Below, piece by piece: positions 28,088-63,061 of a stretch of DNA of 64,000 nt. Source of the stretch: a plasmid; sequence record NZ_LR134454.1, one strand, 5' to 3'. The position numbers were made by a program, and so were the translations under genes. Position 1 is the first letter of the stretch; the number at the start of each line of letters is the position of its first letter. Below the pieces are notes generated by a model. It worked only from the letters and a program-made list of their open reading frames with translations, had not been told where the DNA came from and made no database searches.

Positions 28088-28102
28088 CACGGTTCGATAG
28101 GG

Positions 28103-28114
28103 TTGCGATCGCAA
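28103..28114. promoter_or_regulatory. Perfect 12-bp palindrome TTGCGATCGCAA, 20 nt upstream of the NRPS start codon.
   Basis: Read directly from the sequence. It lies between a TTGACA hexamer (28084-28089) and the GGAGAGG RBS of the NRPS. Confidence 0.45.
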
Positions 28115-28133
28115 ACCTGATGGAGAGGCGACC

Positions 28134-31100
28134 ATGGCGAACCGGTTCAAGGGGAGGCGCGCTGCGCGCGCCGGAGTGACGCTGACCCGGGCGCAGGAGC
28201 ACGTTCTCGCCGCGCGCGCGGCCGATGGGCAGGGTCCGCTCTGGACGATCAGCGAGTACATCGTCCTCGACGGGGACGTCGACGACGCCGTGCTGCGCCG
28301 CGCCGCCGCGTACGTGGCGACGGCGGCCGAGCCCCTCGTGGTCCGGATCGACGAGAAGGCGCACACCCAGGTCACCGGAGCCGGTACCACGGTTGTCGTG
28401 GAGGAGGTCGACCTGCGCCACGCGGCCGATCCCGAGGAGGCGGCCCGCAGGTTCGCCGCGGACCGTCTGGCCTCGCCCCCGCGCGCGCCCCGGGTCCGCC
28501 TCGCCCTCGTCCGCACCTCCGCGACCCGGGTGCGGCTGCTGCTCGAATGCGACCTCGCGGTCGCCGACGGCTACACCGCCGCCCGCGTCCGCGCCGCGAT
28601 CGCCCGCGCCTACACCGCCCTGGTCGAGGGCCGCACCCTGCAGGCGGACCCGATCCGTCCGCTGCGCGCGCTGCGCGACGCCGAATCCGGCTACCTCGCC
28701 TCCCGCGACCGCGCGGAGGACGCCGCGTACTGGCGCGCCGCCGGCCTCCCGGGCCCGACCACGCTTCCGGGCGGCGCACCGTCGGGCGCCCCGAACGGCC
28801 AGGTCCGGGCGCCGTTGCTGTCCGTTCCCGCGGAGCTCGTCGGCAGCCTCGACGCCGAGGCCCGCGCCGTGGGCGTGCGGAACTTCACCGTCGCCGTCGT
28901 CGCGGCAGCGCTCGTCGCCGCGCGCCGCACCGGCGCCGAGCGGGTGCGGGTCGACCTGCCCGTGTCCGGCCGCATCGACGAGACCGGCCTCGACACCGAC
29001 GGCGCCGCGGGCACCACCATCGCCGTGCGCGTCGACCTCCCGCCGGCGGGCACGGTGCGGGAGTGCCTGCGCGCCGTCGACGCCTCCATCCGGCAGGCCT
29101 TCCTGCACCAGCGCGGCCGCCCGCTCGACGGCGAGCACGGCTCGACGGGCCTGGTCGTGAACTACCTGCAGCCGATCCCGGAGGACTTCGCCGGCGTGCC
29201 CGGTGGCACCGAGGTGATCAACGCCGGCCCCGTCCGGCACCTCGCCTTCGTCGCGCTCGCGATGGACGACGGCCTCGTCCTCGACGTCCGCGGCCGCGCC
29301 GGGGTCTTCGACGACGAGCAGGTCGCCGCCCTCGCCGCCGAGTGGCGCGGCGCCATCGCCGCGCTCGTCGCCGACCCCGACGCGCCGCTGGGCCCGCTCC
29401 GCGAGGTCGTTGTCGCCTCGGAGCCGGCCACCCCGGACGCCGCCGCGGTGGGTACCGCCGTCGGCGGCGACGACGTCGCGCTCGTCGCGCAGTTGCTGAG
29501 CGACATCCTCGGCGTGCCCGACGTGGGCCCCGACGATTCGCTCTTCGACCTGGGCGGCACCTCGCTGGTCGCGGTCCGGGTCACCGACCGGCTCGCCGAG
29601 CTGCGCGGCGTCCAGATCCCCGCGGTCGACGTCTTCGACAACCCCACGCCCCGCGGCCTGGCCGCGCTGCTCGCGACGGCGCCGCCCGTCGCCACGCCTG
29701 CGCCGAGCCCTTTGAGCGGCATCGCGATCGTCCCGGCGTCCGGGTCCGAGGACGCCGCGGCATCGTCGACCCCGGCCCCGTCCGGCCCGGTGATCCCGTC
29801 CCTGGGCGACGTTCCGGAGGCCCCCGCCTCGCACGCGCAGGCCGGCCTGTTCCGCGACTTCCAGCTCTCCGGGCCCTCGCCGGTCTACAACATGCCGCTG
29901 GTACTCGACTTCGACGAGCCCGTGGACGCCGCCGCGATGGCCCTCGCCGTGCGGGACGTGGTGATCAAGCACCGGGCGCTGCGCACCGTGCTGCGGCTGC
30001 GCGGCGACGACGTGGTGCAGGACCTCACCGTTCCCGTCGACGACGCCCGGCTGCTCGAGCGGCGCACCGTCGCCGCCGACGACCGCGACGACGCCGCCCG
30101 CGAGTGCGCCGCGTACGCCTTCGACCTCGCCGCGGAACCGCCCTTCCGGGGCTGGCTGCTGGAGGACGCCGACCCGGACGAGCCGCAGCGGATGGTCCTC
30201 GTGCTGCACCACACCGCCGGCGACGGCGCGTCCGTGGGGCCGCTGCTGCGCGACCTGGTCGCCGCCTACGCGGCCCGCCGCTCGGGCGTCGCGCCGGATC
30301 TCGGCGCCCCCGCCGTCGAGTACGCCGACGTCGCCGCGTGGCAGGTCGCGCGGCTGCGGGACCCCGACGGCCCGGTCGTGGCGCAGCGCGAGTTCTGGCG
30401 CCGCACGCTCGACGGTGCGCCCGCCGAGACCGCGCTGCCCGTCGACCGGCCGTACCCCGCGGAGAACGGCTTCGCCGGTGGCACTGTCGATCTCGCGTGG
30501 CCCGCCGAGCTCACCGCGTCGCTGCGGACCGTCGCGCGCGCGTCCGGAGCGAGCCTGTTCATGGTCCACTACGCCGCCCTCGCGGCGCTGCTGTCGAAGC
30601 TCGGCGCGGGCGACGACGTGGTGATCGGCACCGCCGCGTCCGGTCGCCCCGCGTCGTGCGACGACGTGGTCGGCATGTTCGTCAACCTGCTGCCCCTGCG
30701 CACCACCGTCGACTGGTCGGCCCCGTTCGAGGAGTACCTGCGGCGCACCCGCGCGACGGTCCTCGACGCCTACGCGAATCAGGACGTGCCGTTCGGCGAG
30801 GTCGTCGCGATGCAGCCCCGCGGCTCGGCCGCCCGTCACCCCGTCTTCCAGGTGATCCTCGGCTGGAACGAGGACCCGGGCTGGGGCGACGTGCGGGACG
30901 TCCTCGGCGCCGAGGTGGCGCCGATGGCCGCCGGCACGTCCCGCGCGGACCTGCTGTTCAGCATCACCGAGTCCGCCGACGGCCTCGCCGGCGGCGTCGA
31001 GTACCGCACCGACGTCTTCGACCGCGCCACGATCGAGACCCTGGTCGCCCGCTGGCGGCGGCTGCTCGAGCAGATCGCCGCGGAGCCGCGGACCCCCGTC

Positions 31101-34100
31101 GCGGCCCTCGACGTGCTGCTCGACGCCGAGCCCGCCACCCTCGCGGCGTGGGGCGCACCGTCGGGCCCGCAGCCCACCCGCGTCGTGCCCGACCTGATCG
31201 ACGAGTGGATCCGCACCAGCCCCGACGCGCTCGCCCTCGTCGACGACGAGGAGTCGCTGACCTACGCCGACCTCGACCGGGAGGCGAACCGCTGGGCCCG
31301 CCACCTGCACGGCGAGGGCGTCCGCCCCGGCGACGTGGTCGCTGTGACGGTGCCCCGCTCGGCGCGGCTCCTCGTCGTGGAGCTGGCCGTGCTGCGCGCC
31401 GGCGCCGCGTACCTGCCGATCGACCCCGCGTACCCCGCGGAGCGCATCGCGTTCCTGCTGGAGGACGCGGCGCCCCGCCTCGTGGTCGGCGCCGACACCG
31501 TCCCCGACCTGCAGCGGTTCGACGGCGCGCCGCTCACCGACGCCGAGCGGGGCCGGCCCCTGCGACCCGAGGACGCCGCGTACGTCGTCTACACCTCCGG
31601 CACGACCGGCACCCCGAAGGGCGTCGTGGTGCCGCACGCCGGTGCCGCCGGCCTGGCCGCGGCGATCGTCGCCGAAACCGGGGCGGGCCCGGGCGCGCAG
31701 GTGCTGTCGAACTTCTCGGTGGGCTTCGACATCTCCTTCTGGGACCTGCTCAGCGCGCTCGCCACCGGCGGCACGCTGCGGATCTCCGCCGAGACCCGCG
31801 TCGGCGACGAGCTCGCCGACTTCGTCGAGGAGCACGGCGTCACGCACGCGCTCATCACCCCGTCGGTCCTGGCCGCGGTCACGCCGGGCCGGATGGCCTG
31901 CCTGACCTCGCTCACCGTGGGCGCCGAGGCGGTCACGCGGCCGCTCATCGAGGCCTGGGCACCCGGGCGCCGGCTGATCAACGCGTACGGCCCCACCGAG
32001 CTCACCGTCGCCACGACCGTCGGGCGGCTCGAACCCGGCGCCGACGTGGTGTCGATCGGCCGCCCCATCGGCGGCTCCCGCGCGTACGTCCTCGACGCGG
32101 GGCTGCGCCGCGTGCCGCCGGGCGTCGTCGGCGAGCTGTACGTCGGCGGGCCGGGCGTCGCGCGCGGCTACGGCGGCCGTCCGGGCCTGACGGCGTCGCG
32201 GTTCGTCGCCGACCCGCTCGGCGCCGACGGCGACCGCGTCTACCGCACCGGCGACCTCGTGCGCTGGCTGCCCGGCGGCGAGCTCGAGTACGTCGGCCGC
32301 GCCGACGACCAGGTGAAACTGCGCGGCTTCCGGATCGAGCCGGGCGAGGTCGAGGCCGCGCTCGCCGCATGCCCCGGCGTCAGCGCCGCCGCGGTCGTCG
32401 TGCAGGGCGACGGTGCCGCCCGCCGCCTCGTCGGCTACGTCACCGGCACGGCGACCGAGCCGGACGCCCGGGCCTTCGCGGCGCGGAGCCTGCCCGCGCA
32501 CATGGTGCCCGCCCGCGTGGTGGTGCTCGACGCGCTGCCGCTGACCGCGAACGGCAAGGTCGACCGCGCGGCGCTGCCCGCGCCCGACGCCGGCGACGAG
32601 GCCCGTTACCGCGCCCCCGGCACCTCCGCCGAGGAGCTCCTCGCCGGGGTCGTCGCCGAGGTGCTCGGCGTGGAGCGGGTCGGCGTCGACGACTCCTTCT
32701 TCGAACTGGGCGGCGACTCGATCACGGCGATCCAGCTGGTGGGCCGCGCCCGCGCCGCGGGCCTGACGCTGACCGCCCACGACGTCTTCGCGCACCGCAC
32801 CGTCGCGGGGCTCGCCGCCGTGGCCGGCGTGGCCGATCCCGCGGACGCCGTGCCCGACGACGGCGTCGGTGAGATCCCGCCGACGCCGGTCCTCACCTGG
32901 TTCGCCGCGCGCGGCGGTACGCCGGACGGCTTCCACCAGTCGGTGCTGGTCCGCACCCCGTCGTCGGTCGACATCGCGACGGTGCACGCGCTGACCCAGG
33001 CCGTCCTCGACCGGCACGACGCCCTGCGCGCGGAGATCGGCGAGGCGCCCGGCGGGGGCCTCTCGCTCACCGCGCGGCCCGTCGGCGCGGTCGCCGCCGC
33101 CGACGTGGTGGACCGCGTCGACGCCACCGGTCTCTCCTTCGACGAGGTCGGCGCGATGATCGCCGCCCAGCACCGCCGGGTGACGGCCCTGTTGCGCCCG
33201 GGCGCACCGTCGCTCCTACGGGTCGTGTGGTTCGACCTGGGCCCCGAGCGGGAGGGCGCGCTGCTGGTCGCGGCGCACCACTTCGTCGTCGACGGCGTCT
33301 CCTGGCGCATCCTGCTCACCGACCTCGCAACCGGCTGGCACGCCGCCTCGACGGGCCGGCCCGTGGTGACGGCCCCGGTGGGCAGCTCCTTCCGCCGCTG
33401 GGCGACGGTGCTCGCCGACCGCGCCGGGCAGGTGGGCCCGGACGAGCTCGCGTACTGGCGGTCCGTGCTCGACGGTGCGCCGTCCCTGGTCGACGGTGCG
33501 CTGGACCCGACCCGCGACACCCACGGTTCCGCCGGCCATGCCGAACTGACCCTGTCCGCCGACGTCGCCGCGCCGTTGCTCGGCGCGGTGCCCGAGGCGT
33601 TCCACGCGGGCGTGCAGGACGTGCTCCTCGCGGCCTTCGCGACCGCGGTGACCGCTTGGGCGGGCGAGCGCGGACGCGACGCCGAATCGGCGCTCGTCGA
33701 GGTGGAGACGCACGGCCGCGACGAGACCCTGGCCCCCGGCCTGGATCTCACGCGCACCGTCGGCTGGTTCACCAACGTCCACCCGCTGCGGCTGCGGCCG
33801 GGCGCGGGTGCCGACGCCGCCGCGGCGGTCAAGAACATCAAGGAGCAGCTGCGGACCGTCCCGGACGGCGGTATCGGCTACGGCCTCGCGCGGTTCGGCG
33901 GCGCCGCGGCGGCGCAGGAGTTCGCGGGACTGCCGCAGCCGGAGATCGGCTTCAACTACCTGGGCCGCACGACCGGCGCGAGCGACCGCGACTGGGCGCC
34001 CGACCGCCGCTTCCCCGACCTCTCCCCGGCGCCCGACGGGCTCGCGCTGCTGCACGCCGTGGAGGTGAACGCGGTCGCCCGCGACGGCGCCGACGGGCCG

Positions 34101-37100
34101 GAGCTCGTCGCGTCGTGGACGTGGGCGCCCGCGCTCGTCGACGAGGACGCGGTGCGCCGCCTCGGCGCGCTGTGGTTCGACGCCCTGCGCGGCGTCGTGG
34201 CCGCGGCCGACGACGCCGGCGGGCACACGCCCTCCGACTTCCCGCTGGTCGCCCTCACCGCGGCGCAGGTCGAGCGGCTCGACGAGCGCTACCCGGGCCT
34301 GCAGGACGTGCTGCCGCTGACCGCGCTGCAGCAGGGCTTCCGGTATCACGCGGAGCTCGGCGACGCCGACGACGAACGGCCCGACCCGTACGTGGTGCAG
34401 ACGGTGATCGACTTCGCGGGCGCCCTCGACGAGGGCCGCTTCGCGGCGTCGGTCGCGGCGCTCCTGGCCCGCCGCGAGGCGCTGCGCGCCCGGTTCGTCG
34501 CCGACGGCCTCGACGCGCCCGTCCAGGTCATCGCCGCCCCCGGGCCCGCGCCCTACCGGTACGAGGATGTGCGCGCGGACGACGACCCGGAGGGCCGGTT
34601 CGCCGAACTCGCCGCGGCCGAGCGGCGCCGCGGCTTCCGCCTCGACCGCGACCTCGGCATGCGGTTCCTTCTGGTCCGGGTGGGGGAGCGGGACTTCCGG
34701 CTGGTGGTGACCAACCACCACATCCTGTGGGACGGCTGGTCGGCTCCGGTGATCTTCCGCGACCTGCTGGCCGGCTACGCGGGCCTCGACCCCGACGCCG
34801 CCGGCGTCCCGCGGGCGACGCTGCGCGACTACTTCACCTGGCTGCGGGGCCGCGACGGCGACGCCGCGCGCACCGCGTGGGCCGCCGAGCTCGACGGCCT
34901 CGACGAGCCGACGCTCGTCGCCCGCGACCTCCCGCGCGCGCACCCGAGCGGCGCCGCGCGCGGGCCCGGAGCCGACGGCGGACCGTCGGGCCCGGAGCAG
35001 GACGAGGTCCGCGCGACCATCCCCGCCAACCTGACCGCGGCCGTCACGCGCCTCGCGGGCCGCCTCGGCGCCACGCCGGGGGCGGTGCTGCAGGCCACCT
35101 GGGCGATCGCGCTCGGCGGCGCGACGGGCCGCGGCGACGTGGTCTTCGGCTCCGTGCAGTCGGGCCGCCCCGCGCAGCTCGACGGCGTCGAGGACCTGGT
35201 CGGCCTCCTCATCACCACCTCCCCGGTGCGGGTGGACCTGGACCCGCGGCGCACCGTCCGCGAGGTCGCGCTCGGCGTGCAGGAGCAGTACGTGCGCCTG
35301 CTCGACCACCAGCACCTCGGGCTGACGGGCATCGCCCGCGCGGCCGGGCGGGACGAGCTCTTCGACTCGCTGTTCGTGGTGGAGAACTACCCGTCGACCG
35401 CGGGCGCGACGATCCCCGGCACCGATGTCGAGGTCGTCGACGTGCGCGGCGACGACGCCACCCACTACCCGCTGTCCGTCGCCGTGGTCCCGGGCGAGAC
35501 CCTGCACGTCCGCGCGGGCTTCCGCACCGACGCGGTGGACCGCGCGGCCGTCGAGGACCTCCTCGACCGGTGGCGCCGGATCCTGACCGCCGCGGTCGCG
35601 CGCCCCGACGCCCGGCTCGCCGACATCGACGGCGCAGGGGAGACCGAGCGGCTGCTGGTGCGGCGCTGGGGCGGCGCGATCGGCGGCGTGCCCGCCCGCA
35701 CCCTGCCCGAGCTGTTCGCGCGCCGCGCCGCGGCCCGGCCGAAGTCCCGGGCCGTCGCGGGCGAGGGCACGCCCCTCACCTACGCCGAGCTCGACGCGCT
35801 CTCGAACCGGTGGGCGCGCCGCTTCCTCGCCGAGGGCGTCGGCCCGGGCGACGTGGTCGCCGTGACCGCGCCCCGCTCGATCGGCTTCGTCGCCGTCGTG
35901 CTCGGCGTCGCGAAGGCCGGCGGCGCGTTCCTGCCCATCGACGCCGCGACGCCGCGGGAGCGGATCGAGGCCATGTTCGCCGACGCGCACCCCGTCCTCG
36001 AGGTCGACGGTGCGCTGCTCGACGCGGGGCCCGGCGGGGACGCGGGCGAGGAGCCCGTCACCGACGCCGACCGGCGTGCTCCCCTGACCCCGCAGGACGC
36101 GGCCTACGTCATCTTCACCTCGGGCTCGACGGGCACGCCCAAGGGCGTCACCGTCACCCACGCCGGCCTCGCCGACCTGGTGCGGACCTTCGACGAGCTG
36201 GATCTCGGGCCGGGGACCCGGATGCTGCACAACGCGTCCGTCGGCTTCGACGCCGCGGTCTGGGAGCTGCTGTGCGCGCTCGGCACGGGCGGCACGCTGG
36301 TCGTCTCGGCGACGGTGCGCGCGGGCCGCGAGCTCGCCGCCTTCGTCGAGAAGTACCGGGTCACCAACGCGGTGCTCACGCCCTCCGTGCTGGCGTCGGT
36401 GCCGGAGAGGCGGATGCGGGGCCTGACGTCGCTGGTGGTCGCCGCCGAGGCGGTGCCGCGTGCGCTCGTCGACCGCTGGGGCCCCGGCCGCCGGCTGGTC
36501 AACGCCTACGGCCCCACGGAGGCCACGATCGCGGTCTCGTTCGCGCGGATCCGCCCCGGCGAGTCCGGCCCGGTGCCCATCGGCCGCCCCGTCCGCGGCA
36601 TGGCGGTCCGGGTGCTCGACGGCGCCCTCCGCCGCGTCGCGCCCGGCGTCGTGGGCGAGTTGTACGTCGCGGGCGCCGCGGTGGCCCGCGGCTACGTCGG
36701 CCGGCCGGGCCTCACGGCGTCCCGGTTCGTCGCCGACCCGTACGGTGGCGCCGGGACCCGCATGTACCGCACGGGTGACCTGGTCCGGTGGCTGCCCGAC
36801 GGGACGCTGGAGTACGTGGGGCGCGCCGACGACCAGGTGAAGATCCGCGGCGTCCGCGTCGAGCTCGGCGAGGTGGAGGCGGCGCTGGCCGCCTGCCCGG
36901 GCGTGAGCGCCGCGGTCGCCGCGGTGCGCGACGGCGCCACCGGTGCGCGGCTCGTCGGGTACGTCGTCGCGCCCGGCCTCGCGCCCGACGAGGTGACGGC
37001 CGCCGTCGCCCGCCGGCTGCCCGCCGCGATGGTCCCGTTCGTCGTGGTGCTCGACGCGCTGCCGCTGACCCCGAGCGGCAAGCTCGACCGGGCTGCGCTG

Positions 37101-38528
37101 CCGGAGCCGGTGTTCGCCGCCGCGGCCGGGTACCGGGCCCCCGAGACCGAGGAGGAGCGGGCCATGGTCGCGCTGTTCGAGTCGGTCCTCGAGGCCGAGG
37201 GCGTGGGCCTGGACGACTCCTTCTTCGAGCTGGGCGGCGACTCGTTGTCGCTGATGCGGCTCGTGGACCGCGTGGACGTCGACTTCGGGGTCCGCGTCCC
37301 GATCGTGGGGCTGTTCGAGAGCGCCACCCCGGCGTCGGTGCTCGCGTCGCTGTCGGCGGCGGGAGGGGCGCGCGCCGGCGTCGAGGTCCCCGTCGACGAC
37401 GTGCGGTTCGCGCCGGCCACGCCCGACGTGGTGCCGAGCGGGCACGAGGTCCTCGTCACCGGCGCCACCGGCCTGCTGGGCGGGCACCTGATCCGGGCCG
37501 TGCTCGAGGCGGACCCCGCGGCGCGCGTGCGGGCCCTGGTCCGCGCCCGCGACGAGGCGTCGGGGCTGGAGCGGATCCGCGCGACGATGCGGGGCTACGG
37601 CTCCTGGTCGGACGGCTACGAGGACCGCATCACCGCGCTCCCCGGCGACCTCGCCGAGCCGGGCCTGGGCGTGGACGCGGCCGTGTGGGATCGCGTCATC
37701 GAGCAGGTCGACGCGATCATCCACTGCGGCGCGCGGGTCAACCACGTCGAGCCCTACCCGCGGCTGCGGGCCGCCAACGTCGACTCCACGCGGTTCCTGC
37801 TGGAGCTGGCCTCGCGGCGGCCGGGGACGGTCTTCCAGTTCGTCTCCACCATCTCCGCCGCGGGCGCCTTCGAGGAGATCCCCGACGCCGGGTACACGCA
37901 CTCGAAGTGGGTGGCCGAGCGGGTCGTGGAGCTCGCGGCGGCGAGCGGCGTCCCGTCGACGATCCTGCGTCCCGGCCTCCTGACGGGCGCCCTGGACTCG
38001 GGCGCGACGAACACGGACGACGCCTTCTGGAACCTGGTGCGGTCGATCGCGACGGTCGGCGCGGCACCGTCGGAGCTGCTGGACCAGACGATCGAGATGA
38101 CCCCCGTCGACCGCGCCGCGGAGGCGATGGTCGAGGTCCTCCGCACGGGCGACGAGCCGCTGCGGACGCTCGAGGTGGGCAGCGGCTCGCGGGTGAGCTG
38201 GCGGGAGATCGTCGGGGCGCTGCGCCGCGGCGGCTATCCCGTCGAGGCGGTGCCGGGGCACGTCTTCCTGGAGCGGCAGACCGCCGCGTTCCGCGACCGG
38301 CCGGAGGTGGCGGGGGCGCTCGCGCGCGCCATTCTGCTCATCCGTGCAGGTCTGGAGCGTGAGACCGTCGGCGAGGGTGGCGGCTGGACCCCGACGAGCG
38401 CCGCCGACGGGCGGATCGGGCTCGACGGTGACCGGGGTCCCGTCGGGGACGCCGGGCTCGACGTCTACGTCGACTACTTGGTGCGCATCGGCTTCCTCCC
38501 GCGCGTGGGGAAAGGGGCCGAGGTGTGA
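28134..38528 (+). CDS. Non-ribosomal peptide synthetase, 3464 aa, dimodular with a terminal reductase. Domain order: C* (degenerate)-T-C-A-T-E-C-A-T-R.
   Basis: aa 1-440: condensation-like fold with ECDLAVADG in place of HHxxxDG. aa ~470: [15 protein letters not shown]1 [11 protein letters not shown]1 cores [64 protein letters not shown]1 [12 protein letters not shown] domain [13 protein letters not shown]2 [11 protein letters not shown]2 cores [44 protein letters not shown]2 [12 protein letters not shown] domain [19 protein letters not shown]...YTHSKWVAE (thioester reductase). Confidence 0.9.
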
Positions 38529-50812: not shown

Positions 50813-52483
50813 TCAGACCGCGGCGCCGAGGATCCCGTCGAGCGCCCGCGCCATGTCGGCGGCCTCGATCCGCATGAGCACCGCCTCGTCGACCCCGGCC
50901 AGGTCCAGGCCCGAGTCGGCGAGCCGCAGCTCCCGCTCCTCCTCGGCCGCCTCGATGACGTTCCGCACGAACCGGCCGTTGCCCAGGCGGTCGAGCCGGT
51001 CGGCGACGCCGGCGCAGCAGGTCTCCAACACCTCCGCCGCGTCGCCGGTGAGCACCGCGTCGCGCGAGCGGGCCATCGCCGCGCCGATCTCGGCGAGCTC
51101 GCCCGGGCTGTAGCCGGGGAACCGGATGCGGCGCGCGAACCGCGAGGCCAGGCCCTCGTTGGAGCCGAGGAAGCGGTCGATCTCGGCGTCGTAGCCCGCC
51201 ACGATCACGACGAGGCGGTCGCGGTCGTTCTCCATCCGCGCGAGCAGCGTGTCGATCGCCTCCTGCCCGAACGCGTCGCCGCCGCTGAGGCCCTCCTGCA
51301 CCAGCGTGTAGGCCTCGTCGATGAACAGCACCCCGTCGAGCGCGGAGTCGATGACCGCGGAGGTCTTCTGCGCCGTGGCGCCGAGGTACTGCCCGACGAG
51401 GTCGCGGCGCGAGCACTCGACCACGGTGTCGGTCGCCAGTAGCCCCAGCCCGCGGTACATCCGCGCGACGATGCGCGCCACCGTCGTCTTCCCCGTGCCG
51501 GGCGGACCGGTGAAGGCGAGGTGCAGCGACCGGCTCCCGCTCGACAGCCCGCGGTCGGCGCGCACCCGGGCCAGCTGCATCGTCGTCCGCAGCCGGGTGA
51601 CCTGCTCCTTCACCTCGCGCAGCCCGACCTGCCGCTCCAGCTCGTCGGAGGCCGCGGCCAGTAGCTCGTCGCCGGCTTCGGCGGGTGCGTCGTCGGGGGC
51701 GGGCGCGTCCGGGGCGTCGAGCACCAGGCGGTGGCCCGGGTCGCGCAGCGCGGCCTCCGCGGGCGGGTACGACGGTGCCGCCCGCTCCAGCAGTTCGCGC
51801 GCGCGCTCCTCCTCGCCCTGCTCCCGCAGGACGAGGCCGTGGCAGTACCGGGCCGCGGCGGCGGCGCCGGGCACCGGGCCCTCGGCCGCGACGGTCAGCA
51901 GCCGGGTGGCCTCGGCGAACCGGCCGAGTTGCGCCGCGGCGGATCCCGCGATCGTGGCCGCCGCGGCGGCGAGCACCGGGTCGTCCCAGTCGGCGTGCCC
52001 GGCGAGCGCGGTCAGGGCGTCCGGCCACCGTCGGGTCCGGGCGGCGACGACCGCGCGCTGGTAGTGGGCGATCGGGCACGGCGGGGCGCCGTCGAGGGCG
52101 CGCTCGGCCTCGTCGGGCGCACCGTCGGCGAGCAGGCGCGCGGCGTAGGCGACGTGCGCGGTCGCGGCGTCGCGGAGCGGGTAGTCCACGTAGAGGCCGG
52201 TGGCGAAGGTGGAGCTCAGCGCGCCGGGCGCAAGACCCACGCGGCGGGCGGCGGCGCCGATCCCCTCGACGTGGCGGTGCAGTGCGGCGAGCACCTCGGC
52301 GGTGTTCTCGCCGGCCGCGGCGCGGCCCAGCCAGGCGTCGGCCATCCCCGGATCTGCGGTGGTGGCGGCCTCGAAGGCGCGGCGCGCGAGCGCGGGGTCG
52401 GGCGGCCCCGCCTCGAACTCGCCGATCCCGATCCCGAGCGCGGCGACGCCCGCCTGGAACGCGCGGAGCGCAGATGTAGCCAT
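50813..52483 (-). CDS. AAA+ ATPase of the CbbX/EccA family, with a TPR-like Ala-rich N-terminal half.
   Basis: Walker A GPPGTGKTT, Walker B VLFIDEAY and the CbbX-type arginine finger region. The N-terminal ~300 aa are helical-repeat-like. No ESX core genes (eccB/C/D, mycP, esx) occur in this window. Confidence 0.75.
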   Translation of the reverse strand: MATSALRAFQAGVAALGIGIGEFEAGPPDPALARRAFEAATTADPGMADAWLGRAAAGENTAEVLAALHRHVEGIGAAARRVGLAPGALSSTFATGLYVDYPLRDAATAHVAYAARLLADGAPDEAERALDGAPPCPIAHYQRAVVAARTRRWPDALTALAGHADWDDPVLAAAAATIAGSAAAQLGRFAEATRLLTVAAEGPVPGAAAAARYCHGLVLREQGEEERARELLERAAPSYPPAEAALRDPGHRLVLDAPDAPAPDDAPAEAGDELLAAASDELERQVGLREVKEQVTRLRTTMQLARVRADRGLSSGSRSLHLAFTGPPGTGKTTVARIVARMYRGLGLLATDTVVECSRRDLVGQYLGATAQKTSAVIDSALDGVLFIDEAYTLVQEGLSGGDAFGQEAIDTLLARMENDRDRLVVIVAGYDAEIDRFLGSNEGLASRFARRIRFPGYSPGELAEIGAAMARSRDAVLTGDAAEVLETCCAGVADRLDRLGNGRFVRNVIEAAEEERELRLADSGLDLAGVDEAVLMRIEAADMARALDGILGAAV

Positions 52484-56516: not shown

Positions 56517-56649
56517 GTTCCGAAAGTCGAATTCTCCGGGGCGGCGCGCCGAATGCTGTCGCCGTGCGCCGCAGGACTCGACTTTCGGAAGGCGTGTCAC
56601 AGATCGCGCGCGGCCGGTGTCCCATGTGCGGAAGACTCGAATTCGCATG
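56517..56649. promoter_or_regulatory. Three related motifs: TTCCGAAAGTCGAATTC (56517-56533), its inverted partner TCGACTTTCGGAA (56578-56590) and ACTCGAATTCG (56635-56645), upstream of the oxidoreductase-sigma operon.
   Basis: Read directly from the sequence. The first and second copies are reverse complements over 13 nt. The third overlaps the RBS region. Confidence 0.45.
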
Positions 56650-56660
56650 AGGAGGCAATC

Positions 56661-57701
56661 ATGAAGGTCGTCGTGATCGGCGCGGGCTACGCGGGCACCA
56701 TCGCCGCGAATCGGCTGGTGAAGAAGGCGGACGCGGAGGTGACCGTGGTCAACCCGCGGCCCGGGTTCGTCGAGCGGGTGCGACTGCACGAGCACATCGC
56801 GGGCAGCGGCACGGTCGTCACGCCGCTCACCGAGATGCTGGACCCGCGGATCCGCCTGGTCGTCGGCTCCGTCGACAAGATCGGCGACGGCACGCTGCTC
56901 CTCGCCGACGGCACCTCCCTCCCCTTCGACCGCGCGATCTACGCCGCGGGCGGGGCGCCGACGGCACCGTCGGGCGCCTTCGCGGTGGGCGCGCTCGAGA
57001 CGGCGGAGGAGGCGCACCGGGCGCTGTCCGCCCTGCCCGACGGGGCCGGCGTCACCGTCGTCGGCGGGGGCCTGACCGGCATCGAGACCGCGGCCGAGGT
57101 CGCCGAATCCCGCCCCGGCCTGCGGGTACGACTGCTCAGCGAGGGCGAGGTCGGGGCGTCGCTCGGGCCCGGCGCGCGGGCGCGGGTCCGGCGCGAGCTC
57201 GACCGCCTCGGCGTCGTGGTGGAGCGCGGCCGGTTCGACGGCGCCGACGGTGCCGACCTCGTGCTGTGGGCCATCGCGACCCAGGTCAGCGACCTCGCGG
57301 CGCGCAGCGGCCTCGCCGTCGACGACGCCGGGCGCGTGATCGTCGACGAGTTCCTGCGCAGCGTCTCCGACCCGCGGATCGTCGCGGTGGGCGACGGTGC
57401 CGCCGTCCCCGGCGCACGGTTGAGCTGCCAGACCGCGCTGCCCCAGGGCGCGCACGGTGCGGACAACCTGGCCCGGGAGGTCGCGGGGAAGCGGGCGAAG
57501 CCGTACTCGATGGGCTACACCGGGCAGAACGTCTCGATCGGCCGGAGGAGCGCGGTGATCCAGGCCGCCCGGCGCGACGACACCCCCACCCGCCTCCAGT
57601 TCGGCGGGCGCTCCGCGGCGCTGGTCAAGGAGCAGGTCTGCAGGGTGGCCAAGGGAGCCGCCAGGACCGCGCGCTACGCCTGGTTGCCCGCGCCGCGATG
57701 A
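56661..57701 (+). CDS. NAD(P)/FAD-dependent pyridine-nucleotide disulfide-type oxidoreductase (NDH-2-like).
   Basis: MKVVVIGAGYAGT N-terminal Rossmann motif and a second GG motif VTVVGGGLTGIE. GAGGAGG RBS. Confidence 0.75.
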   Translation: MKVVVIGAGYAGTIAANRLVKKADAEVTVVNPRPGFVERVRLHEHIAGSGTVVTPLTEMLDPRIRLVVGSVDKIGDGTLLLADGTSLPFDRAIYAAGGAPTAPSGAFAVGALETAEEAHRALSALPDGAGVTVVGGGLTGIETAAEVAESRPGLRVRLLSEGEVGASLGPGARARVRRELDRLGVVVERGRFDGADGADLVLWAIATQVSDLAARSGLAVDDAGRVIVDEFLRSVSDPRIVAVGDGAAVPGARLSCQTALPQGAHGADNLAREVAGKRAKPYSMGYTGQNVSIGRRSAVIQAARRDDTPTRLQFGGRSAALVKEQVCRVAKGAARTARYAWLPAPR

Positions 57702-58567
57702 GTGCCGAGGAGCTCTTCGCCGGGCATCGCGCGCTGCTGTTCTCCGTGGCGTACGAGATCCTGGGCAGCGTCGCGGACGCGGAGGACGTGCTGCAGGAGA
57801 GTTACCTGCGGTGGCGCGAGGTGGACCTCGACACCGTCGAGAACCCGCGGGCGTACCTGGCGCGCATCGTGACCCGGCAGGCGCTCAACGCCCTGCGGGC
57901 CGCATCGCGGCGGCGGGAGGAGTACGTGGGGCCGTGGCTGCCGGAGCCGCTGGAGGCACCGACGGGCGACGCGCCGGCCGAGCACGTGCTCACGGGCGAG
58001 GCGGTGACCACGGCGATGCTGCTGGTCCTGGAATCGCTGACGCCCACCGAGCGCGCGGTCTTCGTGCTGCGGGAGGTCTTCGATTTCGGCTACCCCGAGA
58101 TCGCCGAGGCCGTCGGCAAGAGCGAGGCGACGGTGCGCCAGACGGCGCACCGCGCCCGCGGGCACGTGCGGGCCCGGCGACCGCGGGAGGTCGTGGATCC
58201 GGCGCAGGCGCAGGGCGTCGCCGAGCGGTTCGTGCTGGCGGCGGCGACGGGGGACGTGCAGGCGCTCATGGACCTCCTGGCGCCCGACGTCGTGTACCTG
58301 GGCGACGGCGGCGGGGTGGTCTCGGCCGCGCGGCGGCCGGTGCAGGGCGCGGACCGGGTGGCCCGGTTCGTCGCTGGGCTGTTCCGGAAGAGCGCCACGA
58401 TGGGGGAGCTCGGGCTGCGGTTCGCGGTCTACAACGGCATGCCGGCGATGGTCGTGACGTTCGACGGGGTGGTCGACCAGGTCACCTGCATCGAGGTCGA
58501 CGGTGGCGCGGTGACCGGCGTGTACACGGTGCGCAATCCGGACAAGTTGCGGCGAGTCATCGGATGA
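57698..58567 (+). CDS. sigJ: ECF sigma-70 factor with a C-terminal SnoaL-like extension (SigJ-like).
   Basis: Region 2 LLFSVAYEILGSVADAEDVLQESYLRW and region 4 ERAVFVLREVFDFGYPEIAEAVGKSEATVRQTAHRAR, plus a ~110-aa C-terminal SnoaL-like domain as in M. tuberculosis SigJ. The start overlaps the oxidoreductase stop. Confidence 0.75.
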   Translation: MSAEELFAGHRALLFSVAYEILGSVADAEDVLQESYLRWREVDLDTVENPRAYLARIVTRQALNALRAASRRREEYVGPWLPEPLEAPTGDAPAEHVLTGEAVTTAMLLVLESLTPTERAVFVLREVFDFGYPEIAEAVGKSEATVRQTAHRARGHVRARRPREVVDPAQAQGVAERFVLAAATGDVQALMDLLAPDVVYLGDGGGVVSAARRPVQGADRVARFVAGLFRKSATMGELGLRFAVYNGMPAMVVTFDGVVDQVTCIEVDGGAVTGVYTVRNPDKLRRVIG

Positions 58568-58605
58568 CTACGGTAGGTCGGTGAACAGCGGTTCCCGCCA
58601 CCGAG

Positions 58606-58651
58606 GTACGGAATCGTTCACTAACTTTGTCGCCTTTGCGGCATTCCGTAC
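58606..58651. other. Inverted repeat GTACGGAAT...(28 nt)...ATTCCGTAC, 40 nt downstream of the sigma-factor stop, inside a ~390-bp low-GC leader.
   Basis: Read directly from the sequence. It could act as a terminator/attenuator or as a protein-binding site. Confidence 0.4.
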
Positions 58652-58954
58652 GCGCGAAGTCTGAGTCGAACGGCGCGCTAATGAATGTGCGACCGCAAAC
58701 CTGTGACTGACGTGCTACTCCACTAAAGGCTCTCGACCTGCATGTTTGCTGGCGATTGTGATGCCAGTCACGAAACGATAACGGTTGCATTTCGAAACGG
58801 ATTTGCTACTGCCAGGTAGTGAATCCTGTGATTAATCTTCGCGGTGATCGAGGGTGACCACCGTTCCTTATCAGCGAGTGAACTCCCTCAGTCATCCGAT
58901 CGCCGCCGACCCCCAGGCGCGTGGATCGTCACGTGAAGAACCCAGGAGAGACCT

Positions 58955-61057
58955 ATGCGTGCTGCCACCCTGCCCACGAACACCGCGCCCGTCGGAGGCA
59001 CCCCGTTCAGCTGGAGCCGGACGGGGGTGATCACCCAGGCGCTGGCCGCGACCGTCCTCGCCGGCTCGCTGACGCTCACCGCCATGCCCTCGTCGAGCTT
59101 CCAGCTGCCGTCCCCCGCGCAGGTGCTCGCCGTGCCCGCGGCGGCGGCCCCACTGCGCATGGACGTGCAGATGACGAGCATCATCGACCTGCTGCCTCCA
59201 GGGGCGATCGCGGCGATGCTGGAGGACACCAGCTCGCAGAAGCTCGCCGACGCGATGGCACTGACGAATCCGGCGAAGGTCGCCGACATCATGTCGCGCA
59301 TGGACCCGGCCAAGACCGCCAAGATCCTCGAGGCGATGCCCGCCGACAAGGTCGTCGCGATCATGAACCTGATGGACGAGAAGAAGCTGACGGCCATCGT
59401 CAACGGCCTGCCGCAGAACAAGCTCAACACCATCGTCGCGGGCCTGTCCCAGGACAAGCTCAACGCGGTGGTCAAGGCGATCCCCGAGGCCAAGCTCATC
59501 GAGGTGGTCAAGAGCCTCGACGACGCCACCCTCGGCAAGATCGTCGGCGCGCTGCCGACGGATCGCCTCGTCACCATCGTCTCCGGCCTCGATCAGCAGA
59601 AGCTCAAGGACCTCGTCGGGGGCATTCCCGCCGACGTCCTCGGCCCCGTGGTCGGAAGCCTCCCGGACGACAAGCTGGCGGCACTCGTCGGGCAGATCCC
59701 CGTCGACAAGCTGGGCGCGGTCGTCGCGACCCTCCCGCCCGCGACCATCGCCAAGCTGGTCGAGGGCCTGCCGACGTCCGTGCTGACCGAGGTGATCGGC
59801 ACCGTCGACCCCGCGAAGATCGGTCCCGCCGTCGCCGGTCTGTCGAACGACAAGCTCGCCGCCCTGGTCGGCTACATTCCGACCGACAAGCTGGCCGCCG
59901 TGGTCTCGGGCTTCGACGAGAAGAAGCTGGGCGAGATCGTCGGCCTCATCCCGGTCGAGAAGCTCGGCCCCGTGGTCGCCGGCCTGCCCGCCGACAAGCT
60001 GACCGCACTGGTCAAGCAGATCCCCGTCGAGAAGCTCATCACCGTGGTCTCGGGCCTCGACGACAAGACCCTCAGCGAGCTGGTCAACGGCATCCCGGTC
60101 GAGAAGCTCGGCCCGATCGTCGCGGGCCTGCCGACCGAGAAGCTCATCCAGCTGGTCGGATCCATCGACTCCGAGAAGCTCAAGGCGATCGTCGGCGGCC
60201 TGCCCGACGACAAGCTGCTCGACATCATGGACGGCCAGCTCATCGGCCGCGTGGTCTCGCTGGTCGTCGCGAGCCTCGGCACCCCGGGCGGCATCGCCAA
60301 GCTGCCCGACCTGCTCACCGGCGTCGTCAGCGGCGCCGTCTCGGGCGGCGCGCAGCTCGTGCCGAACCTCGTCGCGAACATCCCGCTGGTCGGCCCGGTC
60401 ATCGCCGGACCGATCCAGCTGGTCACGAACGCCGTGGTGGTGCCCGCGGTGAACCTCGGCCTGAGCCTGCTGCAGCCGGTGTTCTCGCTGATCGCCACCG
60501 TCGTCTCGCTGCCGGTCTCTCTGGCGACGTCGGTCATCGGAGGCGGCGGCCTGACGGACCTGTTCGGTGAGGTGACGAAGGGGCTCGCGGGTCTCGCCGG
60601 AACCGACGCCGCGAAGTCCCTCGACGTCGCCGCGAAGTCGCTCACCGCCGACGCGAAGCCGGAGGCGGCATCGCTGCTCGCGACCGCGGCCGCGCCCGCT
60701 GCGGAGGACGAGGCCGCCGCAGCCGGCGCCGCCGAGAAGGCGAAGGACGCCGAGACCGCCTACGTCGGCAAGCACCGCGCCGACGACAGCGAGGCGGCCG
60801 ATCCGGTGACCGTCGCGCCGACGACGGCCGAGCCGACCGACGCCGCCCCGGCGACGGAATCCGCTCCGGAGACCGTCACGGAGGCCGCTCCCGCGACCGA
60901 GGACGCCCCTGAGGACGCCCCCGAGGAGGAGGCGGCCCCCGCTGAGACGCCGGCCGCCGCGGAGACCGCCGCTCCGGCACCCGCCGAGGAGACGGCGGAC
61001 GCTGCGGACGCTGCCGCCGCCGACGAGGACGCGTCCACCACTGCCGACGCCGCCTGA
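58955..61057 (+). CDS. Secreted or envelope-associated tandem-repeat protein (700 aa): signal-like N-terminus, 28 tandem 12-residue repeats (consensus K-L-x-x-[IVL]-V-x-G-[LI]-P-x-[DE]), a Gly-rich hydrophobic segment and an acidic Ala/Pro/Glu/Thr tail.
   Basis: AGGAGAG RBS before the ATG. Repeats run from aa 96 to 431 (nt ~59240-60247), e.g. KLAALVGQIPVD, KLGAVVATLPPA, KLGPVVAGLPAD, KLTALVKQIPVE. The periodicity resembles MgtE_N/FliG-type helical repeats, but with Lys and hydrophobic residues in place of Glu/Leu. Confidence 0.7.
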   Translation: MRAATLPTNTAPVGGTPFSWSRTGVITQALAATVLAGSLTLTAMPSSSFQLPSPAQVLAVPAAAAPLRMDVQMTSIIDLLPPGAIAAMLEDTSSQKLADAMALTNPAKVADIMSRMDPAKTAKILEAMPADKVVAIMNLMDEKKLTAIVNGLPQNKLNTIVAGLSQDKLNAVVKAIPEAKLIEVVKSLDDATLGKIVGALPTDRLVTIVSGLDQQKLKDLVGGIPADVLGPVVGSLPDDKLAALVGQIPVDKLGAVVATLPPATIAKLVEGLPTSVLTEVIGTVDPAKIGPAVAGLSNDKLAALVGYIPTDKLAAVVSGFDEKKLGEIVGLIPVEKLGPVVAGLPADKLTALVKQIPVEKLITVVSGLDDKTLSELVNGIPVEKLGPIVAGLPTEKLIQLVGSIDSEKLKAIVGGLPDDKLLDIMDGQLIGRVVSLVVASLGTPGGIAKLPDLLTGVVSGAVSGGAQLVPNLVANIPLVGPVIAGPIQLVTNAVVVPAVNLGLSLLQPVFSLIATVVSLPVSLATSVIGGGGLTDLFGEVTKGLAGLAGTDAAKSLDVAAKSLTADAKPEAASLLATAAAPAAEDEAAAAGAAEKAKDAETAYVGKHRADDSEAADPVTVAPTTAEPTDAAPATESAPETVTEAAPATEDAPEDAPEEEAAPAETPAAAETAAPAPAEETADAADAAAADEDASTTADAA
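59240..60247 (+). repeat. Degenerate 36-bp tandem repeat array (~28 copies) encoding the 12-aa repeats.
   Basis: Inferred from the protein-level periodicity. Nucleotide copies are divergent, indicating an old, stable array. Confidence 0.65.
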
Positions 61058-61128
61058 CACCCCACTCTCCGGCCCCCTCCGCGCACCCGCGGCGGGGGCC
61101 GGAGCCGTGTGCGACACCGTCGGGCCGG

Positions 61129-61893
61129 TCAGCGCTTGCGGAAGACCAGGACCAGGTTCGACACGAGCAGCTCCCGCAGGCCCGGGACGCGGACCATCCA
61201 CCACGCCCACGACGGGTGGTAGCGCGGGAACGCCGCGACGAGCTCCGCGCCGTCGACGGTGGCGGCCCAGCCCAGCCCGTCCGCCGCGCCCACCTTGAAC
61301 AGCGACGTGCCGTAGAGGTTCTTCGGCGGGTGCCCGTGTTTACGCGTGTACATCCGGGCGGCGCGCTCGCCGCCGAGGTAGTGGGTCAGTCCCATCTCGT
61401 GCCCGCCGAACGGGCCGTACCAGAGGGTGTAGCTCAGGATCACCATGCCGCCCGGGCGGGTGACGCGCAGCATCTCCTCGCCCATGGCCCGCCAGTCGCG
61501 CACGTGCTCGGCGACGTTGGACGAGAGGCAGACGTCGACGGCACCGTCGGCGATGGGGAGCGCCAGGCCCGAGCCCCGCAGGCCCCGCGACGACGTGATG
61601 CCGGCGGCGTGCGCCTCCGACGCGTCGGGCTCGACGGGCACGTAGACGGCGCCGTGCTCGGCGAAGGCGTCCTCGAAGTAGCCGGGCCCGCCGCCGACGT
61701 CGAGGACGAGGGCGCCGTCGAGGTCCCCGAACAGGTCGCCGGTCAGCTCGACGGTGTCGCGGGCCAGCGAGCCGTAGAAGCGCGCGGGCTCGGACTGCTC
61801 GAACCGGAAGTCGGACAGCAGCCCGACCGAGCGGCGCAGGGTGGCGCGCCGCCGCAGCCGTGCCGTCGCGTTCTTCCAGGTAGAGGGGTACAC
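61129..61893 (-). CDS. Class I SAM-dependent methyltransferase (Rv0224c-like).
   Basis: TLRRSVGLLSDFRFEQSEPARFY...LDVGGGPGYF...DVCLSSNVAEHV...GHEMGLTHYLGG closely parallels M. tuberculosis Rv0224c. Start taken as GTG at 61893; an upstream ATG at 61953 would add an Arg-rich 20 aa. Confidence 0.75.
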   Translation of the reverse strand: MYPSTWKNATARLRRRATLRRSVGLLSDFRFEQSEPARFYGSLARDTVELTGDLFGDLDGALVLDVGGGPGYFEDAFAEHGAVYVPVEPDASEAHAAGITSSRGLRGSGLALPIADGAVDVCLSSNVAEHVRDWRAMGEEMLRVTRPGGMVILSYTLWYGPFGGHEMGLTHYLGGERAARMYTRKHGHPPKNLYGTSLFKVGAADGLGWAATVDGAELVAAFPRYHPSWAWWMVRVPGLRELLVSNLVLVFRKR

Positions 61894-61918: not shown

Positions 61919-63061
61919 GTGCGTGAAGTCCTCCTGCTGTGTTGGCGTGACACCCGCCACCCTCAGGGCGGCGGCAGCGAGCTGTACCTCGAGCGCGTCG
62001 GCGAGGAGCTGGCCGCCCGCGGGGTGCGCGTCACGCTGCGGACCGCGATGTACCCCGGCGCGGCCCGGTCCGAGACCGTGCGCGGCGTGCACCTCTCCCG
62101 CGGTGGCGGCCGCTTCACCGTCTACCCCCTGGCGCTGATCGCCATCCTCCTCGCACGGTTCGGGCGCGGTCCGCTGCGCGGGATCCGCCCCGACGCGGTG
62201 ATCGACACCCAGAACGGCATCCCGTTCTTCGCGCGGCTCGTCGCGGGCGTGCCCGTGACGGTGCTCGTGCACCACTGCCATCGCGAGCAGTGGCCCGTCG
62301 CGGGACGCCTCGTGGCGCGGATCGGCTGGTTCATCGAGTCGCGGCTCTCGCCGTGGCTGCACCGGCGCTCCCAGTACCTCACCGTCTCGCTGCCCTCGGC
62401 GGAGGAGCTGGCGCTGCTCGGCGTCGGCGCGGAGCGGGTGGCCGTGGTGCGCAACGGGATCGATGCGGTGGCCCCGGGCGTCGCGGACGTGCGGTCCGCG
62501 TCGCCGCGCATCGTCGTGCTCTCGCGGCTCGTGCCGCACAAGCAGATCGAGGACGCCCTCGACGTGCTCGCCCGCCTGGGCCGTCGCGTCCCCGACCTGC
62601 ACCTCGACGTCATCGGCAGCGGCTGGTGGGACTCCGAGCTGTACGCGCACGCCGCGAAGCTCGGCGTCCTCGACCGCGTGACCTTCCACGGCCACGTCAC
62701 CGAGCAGCGCAAGCACCGGCTGCTCTCCCGCGCGTGGGTGCACGTCATGCCGTCGCGCAAGGAGGGCTGGGGCATCACGGTGATCGAGGCGGCCCAGCAC
62801 GCGGTGCCGACCGTCGGGTACGTCTCGTCGCGCGGGCTCACCGACTCCGTGGTCGACGGTGCCACCGGGCTGCTGGTCCGCGACCTCGCAGGCCTCACCG
62901 AATCGGTGTACACGCTGCTGAGTGACGCTCTGCTGCGGGAGGAGCTCGGCGCGAAGGCGCAGGAGCGGGCGGGGGAGTTCTCCTGGCCCGCCACCGCCGA
63001 CGGCGTCTCCCGCGTCCTGGCCGCGTCCGTCGCCGGGGAGCGCGTCGGCGGGCTCGTCTGA
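61919..63061 (+). CDS. Family-4 glycosyltransferase (GT-B fold), divergent from the methyltransferase.
   Basis: N-terminal LLLCWRDTRHPQGGGSELY and the C-terminal EX7E-type region MPSRKEGWGITVIEAAQHAVPTV. Confidence 0.8.
   Translation: MREVLLLCWRDTRHPQGGGSELYLERVGEELAARGVRVTLRTAMYPGAARSETVRGVHLSRGGGRFTVYPLALIAILLARFGRGPLRGIRPDAVIDTQNGIPFFARLVAGVPVTVLVHHCHREQWPVAGRLVARIGWFIESRLSPWLHRRSQYLTVSLPSAEELALLGVGAERVAVVRNGIDAVAPGVADVRSASPRIVVLSRLVPHKQIEDALDVLARLGRRVPDLHLDVIGSGWWDSELYAHAAKLGVLDRVTFHGHVTEQRKHRLLSRAWVHVMPSRKEGWGITVIEAAQHAVPTVGYVSSRGLTDSVVDGATGLLVRDLAGLTESVYTLLSDALLREELGAKAQERAGEFSWPATADGVSRVLAASVAGERVGGLV

Follow-up and report, generated by a model that had tools for sequence, protein, structure and literature searches.

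The 64,000-nt stretch of plasmid DNA analysed here (NZ_LR134454.1, hereafter the window) carries on its + strand, directly downstream of a SigJ-type sigma factor gene, a gene whose 700-residue product is dominated by tandem 12-residue repeats. The protein belongs to the MgtE_N/FliG superfamily of armadillo-like (ARM-like) repeats and may be an exported scaffold of the cell envelope. Conservation is given throughout for seven genomes, namely the window and six Tsukamurella loci (L001-L006) from a locus scan that took one genome per species. The gene and its parts are as follows.

58955..61057, + strand: coding sequence of the repeat protein (from the list of open reading frames; 700 aa, stop codon included)
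58944..58949, + strand: Shine-Dalgarno sequence AGGAGA, 5 nt ahead of the ATG, read from the sequence
58955..59020, + strand: residues 1-22, n-region with two Arg, closing with the invariant FSW-x-RTG
59021..59083, + strand: residues 23-43, hydrophobic segment GVITQALAATVLAGSLTLTA, a candidate signal-peptide h-region or N-terminal anchor
59084..59167, + strand: residues 44-71, Pro/Ala/Ser linker with the invariant PAQ-x-LA-x-PAAAAPLR
59168..60247, + strand: residues 72-431, array of 30 twelve-residue, one-helix units of the MgtE_N/FliG ARM-like type
59815..60157, + strand: higher-order DNA repeats found by TRF (24 and 48 aa; two- and four-helix super-units)
60248..60559, + strand: residues 432-535, Val/Leu/Gly-rich hydrophobic block with seven invariant prolines (composition, hydropathy)
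60560..61054, + strand: residues 536-700, acidic Ala/Pro/Thr/Glu tail, disordered as judged from composition and a predicted local distance difference test score (pLDDT) of 30-40
60761..60778, + strand: residues 603-608, YVGKHR island within the tail, in six of seven orthologues

Results

The open reading frame is a gene

The + frame has GC contents of 0.715, 0.475 and 0.944 at the first, second and third codon positions (GC1, GC2 and GC3), and the neighbouring genes have a GC3 of 0.945-0.953. The 772-aa antisense open reading frame at 58892..61210 gives 0.931, 0.501 and 0.706, the signature of a shadow frame in a 72.7% GC genome. Because GC3 is 0.944 in the + frame and 0.706 in the antisense frame, the + frame is the coding one. 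The antisense frame, which the original prediction had named as the possible true one, is ruled out by codon-position GC together with the constraint on orthologues. The AGGAGA and the ATG start are kept in all seven genomes in the alignment, and an identical 700-aa gene call exists at NCBI (GCA_900104775.1, contig FNSA01000003.1, gene 3037-5139). The frame at 58955-61057 is a real 700-aa gene.

Thirty units in strict 12-residue register

The original prediction read 28 strictly periodic 12-residue repeats in this frame, preceded by a hydrophobic segment and followed by a Gly-rich hydrophobic stretch and an acidic tail, and all of these parts are indeed present. Residues 96-431 (from nt 59240) consist of 28 clean units with zero indels, and two additional, degenerate units (residues 72-95) precede them. 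Self-identity at lag 12 is 0.307, compared with 0.085 +/- 0.015 in 2000 shuffles (z = 14.7), and the 700-aa protein shows further peaks at lags 24, 36 and 48. The unit consensus is K-L-x-x-[IVL]-V-x-G-[LI]-[PD]-x-[DE]. Over the 28 units its positions are filled by K in 22, L in 23, I, V or L at position 5 in 26, V in 22, G in 13, L or I in 21, P in 16 or D in 8, and D or E in 15. The apolar positions are L2, [IVL]5, V6 and [LI]9, with P or D at position 10, and the array as a whole holds 44 D+E and 35 K+R.

Units are more alike at even lags (identity 0.38-0.40) than at odd lags (0.31-0.32), and TRF finds a 144-nt period (76% matches) and a 72-nt period (69%) at 59815-60157. The units therefore alternate in pairs and make up four-helix super-units.

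The array is also conserved unit by unit. Unit number is identical, with 0 indels, in 7/7 genomes, and the copy-number variation among relatives that had been suggested as a check is absent from the seven species. Identity runs at 75-91% between orthologous units but averages 32% between paralogous units of a single protein, and the ratio of nonsynonymous to synonymous substitution rates (dN/dS) among orthologues is about 0.2-0.5. Given the excess of orthologous over paralogous identity, the lack of indels and the dN/dS values, we conclude that the repeats are old and individually constrained.

Alleles of the gene are mosaic. The first four or five units (59168-59350, residues 72-131) come in two versions, one found in the window and T. 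conjunctivitidis (L005) and the other in the remaining five species, while the species group differently at the extreme N-terminus (58955-59005, residues 1-17). This pattern among L001-L006 and the window suggests recombination within the repeat gene.

The repeats belong to the MgtE_N/FliG superfamily

The Pfam family MgtE_N (PF03448) matches the protein in 4 stretches at 122.5 bits, far above its cut-off of 25.9 (E = 1.3e-35). For the NCBI copy of the gene, the precomputed Pfam field is blank and a direct hmmscan returns MgtE_N at 122 bits. In a PDB sequence search the only matches, all weak (E 0.1-0.9), are to MgtE and FliG. In a single-sequence AlphaFold2 model (mean pLDDT 55.9 overall), one helix of ~10 residues is predicted for each 12-mer throughout the array, at a pLDDT of 70-80; the N-terminus is of low confidence, the hydrophobic block reaches 45-50 and the tail 30-40. 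This predicted structure resembles MgtE N-domains and FliG best. The repeats also have the periodicity of the superfamily, with a period of ~12 residues, an apolar i, i+3, i+4, i+7 face and a Pro turn.

With family match, periodicity and predicted fold in agreement, we conclude that the repeat protein belongs to the MgtE_N/FliG superfamily of ARM-like repeats, and that its Lys/aliphatic unit is a variation on the usual L-x-P-x-x-A-A-x-I-L theme. The original prediction was thus right to see a resemblance to MgtE_N/FliG repeats, which both the Pfam score and the predicted structure bear out, and wrong to consider the family undescribed. It had also held that a confident match to a known repeat family with an assigned function would count against it: the family match exists, and the name PF03448 assigns no function to the Tsukamurella protein. 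Foldseek, likewise proposed there as a check, places the model among armadillo-type solenoids (best E about 3e-5), at TM-scores of only 0.1-0.24.

Several narrower assignments were rejected. The protein is not an MgtE magnesium transporter: the transporter model TIGR00400 gives it only 27.6 bits where 232.75 are required, its match is limited to residues 74-172, and the Pfam scan of the protein found no CBS pair or MgtE pore domain. It is not a FliG rotor protein, as FliG_N, FliG_M and FliG_C score 15.6, 21.5 and 14.2 bits, under cut-offs of 25, 25 and 23.3, and the neighbourhood is non-flagellar. Membership of the FlgY/MotE/FlbB group (COG3334) does not fit a 700-aa protein with a 30-helix array, no long coiled-coil helix in the model and a non-flagellar context. 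Nor is this a canonical armadillo or HEAT protein: its period is 12, 24 or 48 residues and not ~40-42, the Pfam scan gave no Arm or HEAT match, and the TM-scores are those just given.

Full-length relatives so far only in Tsukamurella

All six loci found are from Tsukamurella (T. hominis, T. ocularis, T. sputi, T. conjunctivitidis, T. pseudospumae and strain M9C), and the orthologues are 72-85% identical across residues 1-535. The loci share one gene order, comprising a MacB/FtsX-type ABC permease, a Pyr_redox_2 oxidoreductase, sigJ, the repeat gene, a methyltransferase (-) and a GT4 glycosyltransferase, and the genes neighbouring the repeat gene are 82-97% identical across loci.

An exhaustive phmmer search with residues 1-535 against 1.84 billion representative proteins gave 159 matches at E<=1e-3, the best 150 of which were listed. 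Among the matches listed are five fragments 62-100% identical to the query (P0001, P0002, P0004, P0014 and P0113), at least one of them chimeric; the rest of the best 150 are 16-33% identical. The distant matches examined are heterogeneous proteins whose sole common part is the 12-residue MgtE_N array, and none in the phmmer listing shares the hydrophobic block. Clear Sec or lipoprotein signals occur in P0003, P0005, P0006, P0007 (with an OmpA C-terminus), P0015, P0019 and P0038, and P0009 has a signal peptide, then the array, then a C-terminal transmembrane helix. P0018, P0024 and P0025 are phage-baseplate or VgrG-like spikes, some other distant matches are eukaryotic, and the actinobacterium-like P0012, P0022 and P0033 lack obvious signals.

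A metagenome scan added one 100% identical fragment and one weak generic match, and nothing else. Neither the window protein nor any of five orthologues was found when their full-length sequences were looked up exactly in a 15-billion-protein collection. A word-index homology search with the protein and the 7-sequence alignment returned no match among 8000 candidates, a result that probably reflects swamping by low-complexity sequence and is not evidence of absence. The protein is thus known from Tsukamurella only, and provisionally so, since the large protein collection lacks the exact full-length sequences. Long arrays built from this unit are found in many uncharacterised secreted, surface and phage proteins, and there is therefore nothing new in the array itself. 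It is the combination that sets this protein apart: a 30-unit array free of indels, a proline-punctuated block, a variable acidic tail, and a distribution that is so far restricted to one genus of mycolate actinomycetes.

Segments flanking the array

The N-terminal apolar segment directly follows Arg22, has a Kyte-Doolittle value of 1.56 across 19 residues (25-43) and is present in all orthologues in the alignment. On the other side of the array, the hydrophobic block (432-535) is near-invariant across the seven genomes and has no flanking Lys/Arg cluster; its most transmembrane-like stretch is residues 510-528 (FSLIATVVSLPVSLATSVI). The phmmer search found no homologue of this block outside the genus among the 1.84 billion representative proteins. 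With its seven prolines and without stop-transfer charges, the block does not look like an ordinary inner-membrane anchor, and it could be a lipid-associating or self-associating module.

The tail contains 37 D+E and 8 K+R and is 36% Ala. It is hypervariable in sequence and length between species, with orthologue totals of 700-754 aa. All orthologues end in small residues (ADAA, DSAA or AAA). These ends and the YVGKHR island may each be a short linear motif or a processing site.

Known sorting signals were considered and set aside. The protein has no Cys at all, and no twin-Arg or sorting motif was seen that would mark it as a lipoprotein, an LPXTG protein or a Tat substrate. A type VII secretion substrate was considered as well, with an EccA gene nearby; by inspection, YVGKH mismatches YxxxD/E and there are no WxG/Esx-like features.

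A proposed exported solenoid scaffold and its alternatives

We propose, with a probability of about 50%, that the protein is an exported, envelope-associated alpha-solenoid scaffold. Residues 72-431 form a single uninterrupted alpha-solenoid of ~30 short helices, one per unit, whose fixed length is under purifying selection; positions 2, 5, 6 and 9 face the core, Pro or Asp at position 10 breaks the helix, and Lys1 and Asp/Glu12 lie at the helix ends. The N-terminal apolar segment would direct export or anchor the protein, so that the solenoid would stand outside the cytoplasmic membrane as a rigid scaffold, a spacer or a protein-binding platform. The Pro/Gly-punctuated hydrophobic block would attach to a membrane or lipid layer or else mediate self-association. 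The variable tail, acidic and rich in Ala, Pro and Thr, would extend from it as a disordered stretch that may be glycosylated.

Export is plausible because the N-terminus carries a conserved Arg22 followed by an apolar segment of ~20 residues, and because the tail is of the Thr/Pro/Ala-rich acidic kind typical of secreted actinobacterial proteins, resembling their linkers. It is plausible also because the nearest bacterial array proteins mostly carry Sec or lipoprotein signals, and because the periplasmic E-ring proteins FlgY/MotE/FlbB set an experimental precedent for exported MgtE_N domains (PMC13023049). It is from these observations that we infer export, localization and a scaffold role, and the terms 'exported' and 'cell-envelope solenoid or spacer' used in the original prediction remain plausible.

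A number of observations weigh against this proposal. The Hessa sum is +3.1 kcal/mol for the N-terminal segment, marginal for a stable transmembrane helix, and a likewise marginal +2.4 kcal/mol for the best C-terminal segment. Neither apolar segment has a classical positive-inside flank, and the seven-genome alignment contains no clean conserved AXA cleavage site near the N-terminal segment. The predicted fold comes from a single-sequence model with a mean pLDDT of 55.9, in which the hydrophobic block reaches 45-50 only. Furthermore, the characterised MgtE N-domain and FliG are cytoplasmic, and the literature yields no functional work on long MgtE_N arrays, only studies of the flagellar E-ring.

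A different arrangement, which we consider rather unlikely, is a cytoplasmic scaffold tethered to the membrane, in which the N-terminal segment would be no signal and the C-terminal block would attach to the inner face or span the membrane with the tail outside. The two best-characterised modules of the MgtE_N type, the MgtE N-domain and FliG, are intracellular, the periplasmic E-ring heads of FlgY/MotE/FlbB being the exception; the N-terminal segment is weakly hydrophobic and lacks a conserved AXA site; and P0012, P0022 and P0033 show no obvious signals. Export signals, however, typically show such a conserved Arg with a 20-residue apolar segment at the extreme N-terminus, secretion is the rule among the nearest bacterial array proteins, and Thr/Pro-rich tails are commoner in extracytoplasmic linkers.

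A further alternative is a tether or ruler spanning the envelope, with an anchor in the plasma membrane, the solenoid crossing periplasm and wall, the block in the mycolate outer membrane and the tail on the surface. Tsukamurella is a mycolate-containing actinomycete, and the protein has two separate hydrophobic regions bracketing a rod of fixed length, the C-terminal one with seven invariant prolines and no stop-transfer Lys/Arg cluster. The unit number is invariant in seven species, as would be expected if length matters, but ordinary purifying selection on a folded domain explains a fixed length equally well. The tether is inferential at every step, and no homologue was found in other mycolate genera, which would be odd for a basic envelope function. 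We regard it as improbable.

Slightly more doubtful still is a module for binding or sensing divalent cations, in which the acidic array and tail might bind Mg2+ or Ca2+ by analogy with the MgtE N-domain. Membership of the MgtE_N family and the acidic excess (D+E vs K+R of 44 vs 35 in the array and 37 vs 8 in the tail) would fit such a role. Against it, the protein has no CBS pair or MgtE pore (TIGR00400 at 27.6 vs 232.75 bits), and its acidic residues are the helix-capping D/E of the repeat. In MgtE itself the Mg2+ sites sit where the N and CBS domains meet, according to the Pfam description.

The sigJ neighbour and the upstream region

The region upstream of the repeat gene contains the following features.

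57698..58567, + strand: ECF41/SigJ-type sigma factor gene (TIGR02957, PRK09636, Sigma70_r2/r4, SnoaL_2; gene call)
56595..56621, + strand: ECF41 promoter signature TGTCACA-n16-TGTC, upstream of the oxidoreductase-sigJ operon
58568..58954, + strand: spacer between sigJ and the repeat gene, 387 nt, GC 0.56
about 58780-58850, + strand: conserved block of the spacer, from the alignment of seven genomes, in an AT-richer conserved stretch at 58780-58900
58805-58819, + strand: hairpin GCTACTGCCAGGTAG in the conserved block
58833-58838, + strand: candidate -10 element TAATCT, of the TANNNT type, within the conserved block
58843-58854 with 58885-58896, + strand: possible stem with compensatory changes (RNAalifold)

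The sigma factor is, as the original prediction had it, a SigJ-like member of the extracytoplasmic function (ECF) class: TIGR02957 scores 360 bits and PRK09636 'SigJ' 329 bits, both above their cut-offs, and a SnoaL_2 domain forms its C-terminus. According to Wecke et al. 2012 (PMC3426412), ECF41 factors have no anti-sigma partners, and it is their own C-terminal extension that regulates them. The factors are reported to show genomic linkage to a gene for a COE protein (carboxymuconolactone decarboxylase, oxidoreductase or epimerase), and their promoter, TGTCACA-n16-CGTC, to lie upstream of the COE gene or COE-ECF operon, the only detectable ECF41 target (PMC3426412). Here, the elements and the 16-nt spacing of the signature at 56595 are identical in 7/7 genomes, the Pyr_redox_2 oxidoreductase gene (56661-57701) starts ~40 nt past it, and the stop of that gene overlaps the sigJ start by 4 nt. 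The oxidoreductase-sigJ pair is a textbook ECF41 COE-ECF unit, the Pyr_redox_2 protein fitting the COE role.

The repeat gene had been proposed to be under ECF-sigma control, to be checked by a -35/-10 search of 58568-58954. That search, for TGTCACA-n16(+/-1)-CGTC with up to 1 mismatch allowed in the -35 and [CT]GT[CT] as the -10, found no ECF41 motif. Control by SigJ is not supported, because the spacer lacks the motif and the operon upstream has one. The repeat gene appears to have a conserved upstream region of its own, and it is no recognisable SigJ target; the conserved spacer block may be its promoter and a structured 5' leader. A sigma-70 consensus scan of 58400-61300 found no promoter-like site. 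Over the same interval, a simple terminator scan found none on the + strand and one on the - strand, inside the open reading frame and at chance expectation. Rfam gave no match in the whole window at gathering thresholds, and in the spacer at E<=1 only chance-level flpD (20.6 vs 40 bits) and sR34. A hairpin just past the sigJ stop was considered and rejected, RNAalifold on five genomes giving -9.9 kcal/mol with a positive covariation term. One point tells against an independent upstream region: read-through transcription from sigJ may reach the repeat gene, because no + strand terminator was detected.

The same observations bear on a reading in which the repeat protein is a partner of SigJ, either as a regulon member, an anti-sigma factor or a signal-sensing protein. 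The gene lies directly downstream of sigJ on the same strand, with synteny in seven genomes and no terminator detected between the two. Such a partnership is nonetheless very unlikely. The 387-nt spacer has its own conserved block and no ECF41 motif, whereas a perfect motif precedes the oxidoreductase-sigJ operon, and ECF41 factors have the COE operon as their sole known target and no anti-sigma partners (PMC3426412). The Pfam scan found no COE domain in the repeat protein, and neither Pfam nor NCBIfam matched an anti-sigma domain (e.g. zf-HC2/RskA) on it; an anti-sigma role is unlikely because only 22 residues precede the apolar segment and they contain no such domain.

That there is no gene at 58955-61057, the true frame being the 772-aa antisense one or none, has a negligible chance of being right, given GC3 0.706 and GC1 0.93 in the antisense frame vs GC3 0.944 in the + frame, and a + frame with a Pfam match, a conserved ribosome-binding site and start, indel-free orthologues and dN/dS < 1.

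Other genes of the window

Directly downstream of the repeat gene is a divergent pair, a methyltransferase gene (61129-61893, -) and a GT4 glycosyltransferase gene (61919-63061, +), 91-97% identical in all loci. NCBIfam has no specific name for either. The pair may be comparable to the Rv0224c/Rv0225 envelope locus of M. tuberculosis.

At 50813-52483 (-), the window encodes the type VII AAA-ATPase EccA (TIGR03922, 489 bits, above the equivalog cut-off; T7SS_EccA1_N and AAA domains). A FAD monooxygenase lies on one side of it and an ABC transporter on the other, and the neighbours examined include no further ESX genes. Another gene, at 28101-38528 (+), encodes a non-ribosomal peptide synthetase of 3475 aa in which 4 condensation, 2 adenylation and 3 carrier domains were matched, with a reductase domain at its end.

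Discussion

The main import of this work is the correction of an annotation gap, as the Pfam field of the gene is blank despite a strong MgtE_N match. The Pfam title 'MgtE intracellular N domain' masks the wide occurrence of long arrays in secreted, surface and phage proteins, and the Tsukamurella protein could be a model for an extracytoplasmic function of such arrays. If the array proves to be an envelope spacer or tether, it would bear on the envelope organisation of mycolate actinomycetes. Should the tether in particular hold true, it would be the first helical-solenoid connector between inner and outer membrane in a mycolate actinomycete, and would give a first function to secreted long MgtE_N arrays that databases label 'intracellular'. 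Adjacency to the ECF41/SigJ gene is not to be read as regulation; the promoter signature of that factor sits one gene upstream of sigJ.

Comparison with known systems

The MgtE N-domain (PF03448; PDB 2oux, 2yvy/2yvx, 8gpv) is a cytoplasmic module of about 10 helices, joined in one chain to CBS and pore domains. By comparison, the Tsukamurella protein has ~30 helices in one run, an export-like N-terminus and unrelated C-terminal modules, and the role of MgtE in Mg2+ gating is not transferable to it. Relative to FliG (PDB 3hjl, 8umd, 1lkv), the array is much longer and the FliG domains are sub-threshold. Tsukamurella is non-motile, and the window genes that were examined include none for flagella; the repeat gene lies among genes for an ABC transporter, an oxidoreductase, a sigma factor, a methyltransferase and a GT4 glycosyltransferase.

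Armadillo repeats, including those of importin-alpha, are of the same broad alpha-solenoid class and are the top Foldseek matches (E about 3e-5), but their units of ~42 residues and three helices differ from the 12-residue, one-helix units here.

Closer in their repeats are the other long MgtE_N arrays of bacteria, archaea and phages (P0003, P0005, P0008, P0009, P0018/24/25), which have the 12-residue period and match PF03448 in 4-7 stretches. They often follow a signal peptide, and P0009 has the same order of signal, array and C-terminal hydrophobic anchor. Identity is 20-29% and confined to the repeats; the flanks differ (cytochrome c, OmpA, phage-baseplate spike and others), none has the Tsukamurella hydrophobic block or tail, and no functional characterisation of them was found in the literature.

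The FlgY, MotE and FlbB proteins (COG3334) are structural scaffolds with an MgtE_N-type domain exported or anchored outside the cytoplasmic membrane (PMC13023049). At 170-260 aa they are small: a signal peptide or transmembrane segment is followed by one long coiled-coil helix and then by just one ARM-like head of four helices. They form dimers, ring the MS-ring and are encoded among flagellar genes (PMC13023049). The Tsukamurella protein differs from them in having no coiled coil, a 30-helix array and a non-flagellar context. An exported MgtE_N-type domain may be the only aspect shared, and in this FlgY, MotE and FlbB offer the best precedent for an extracytoplasmic structural role.

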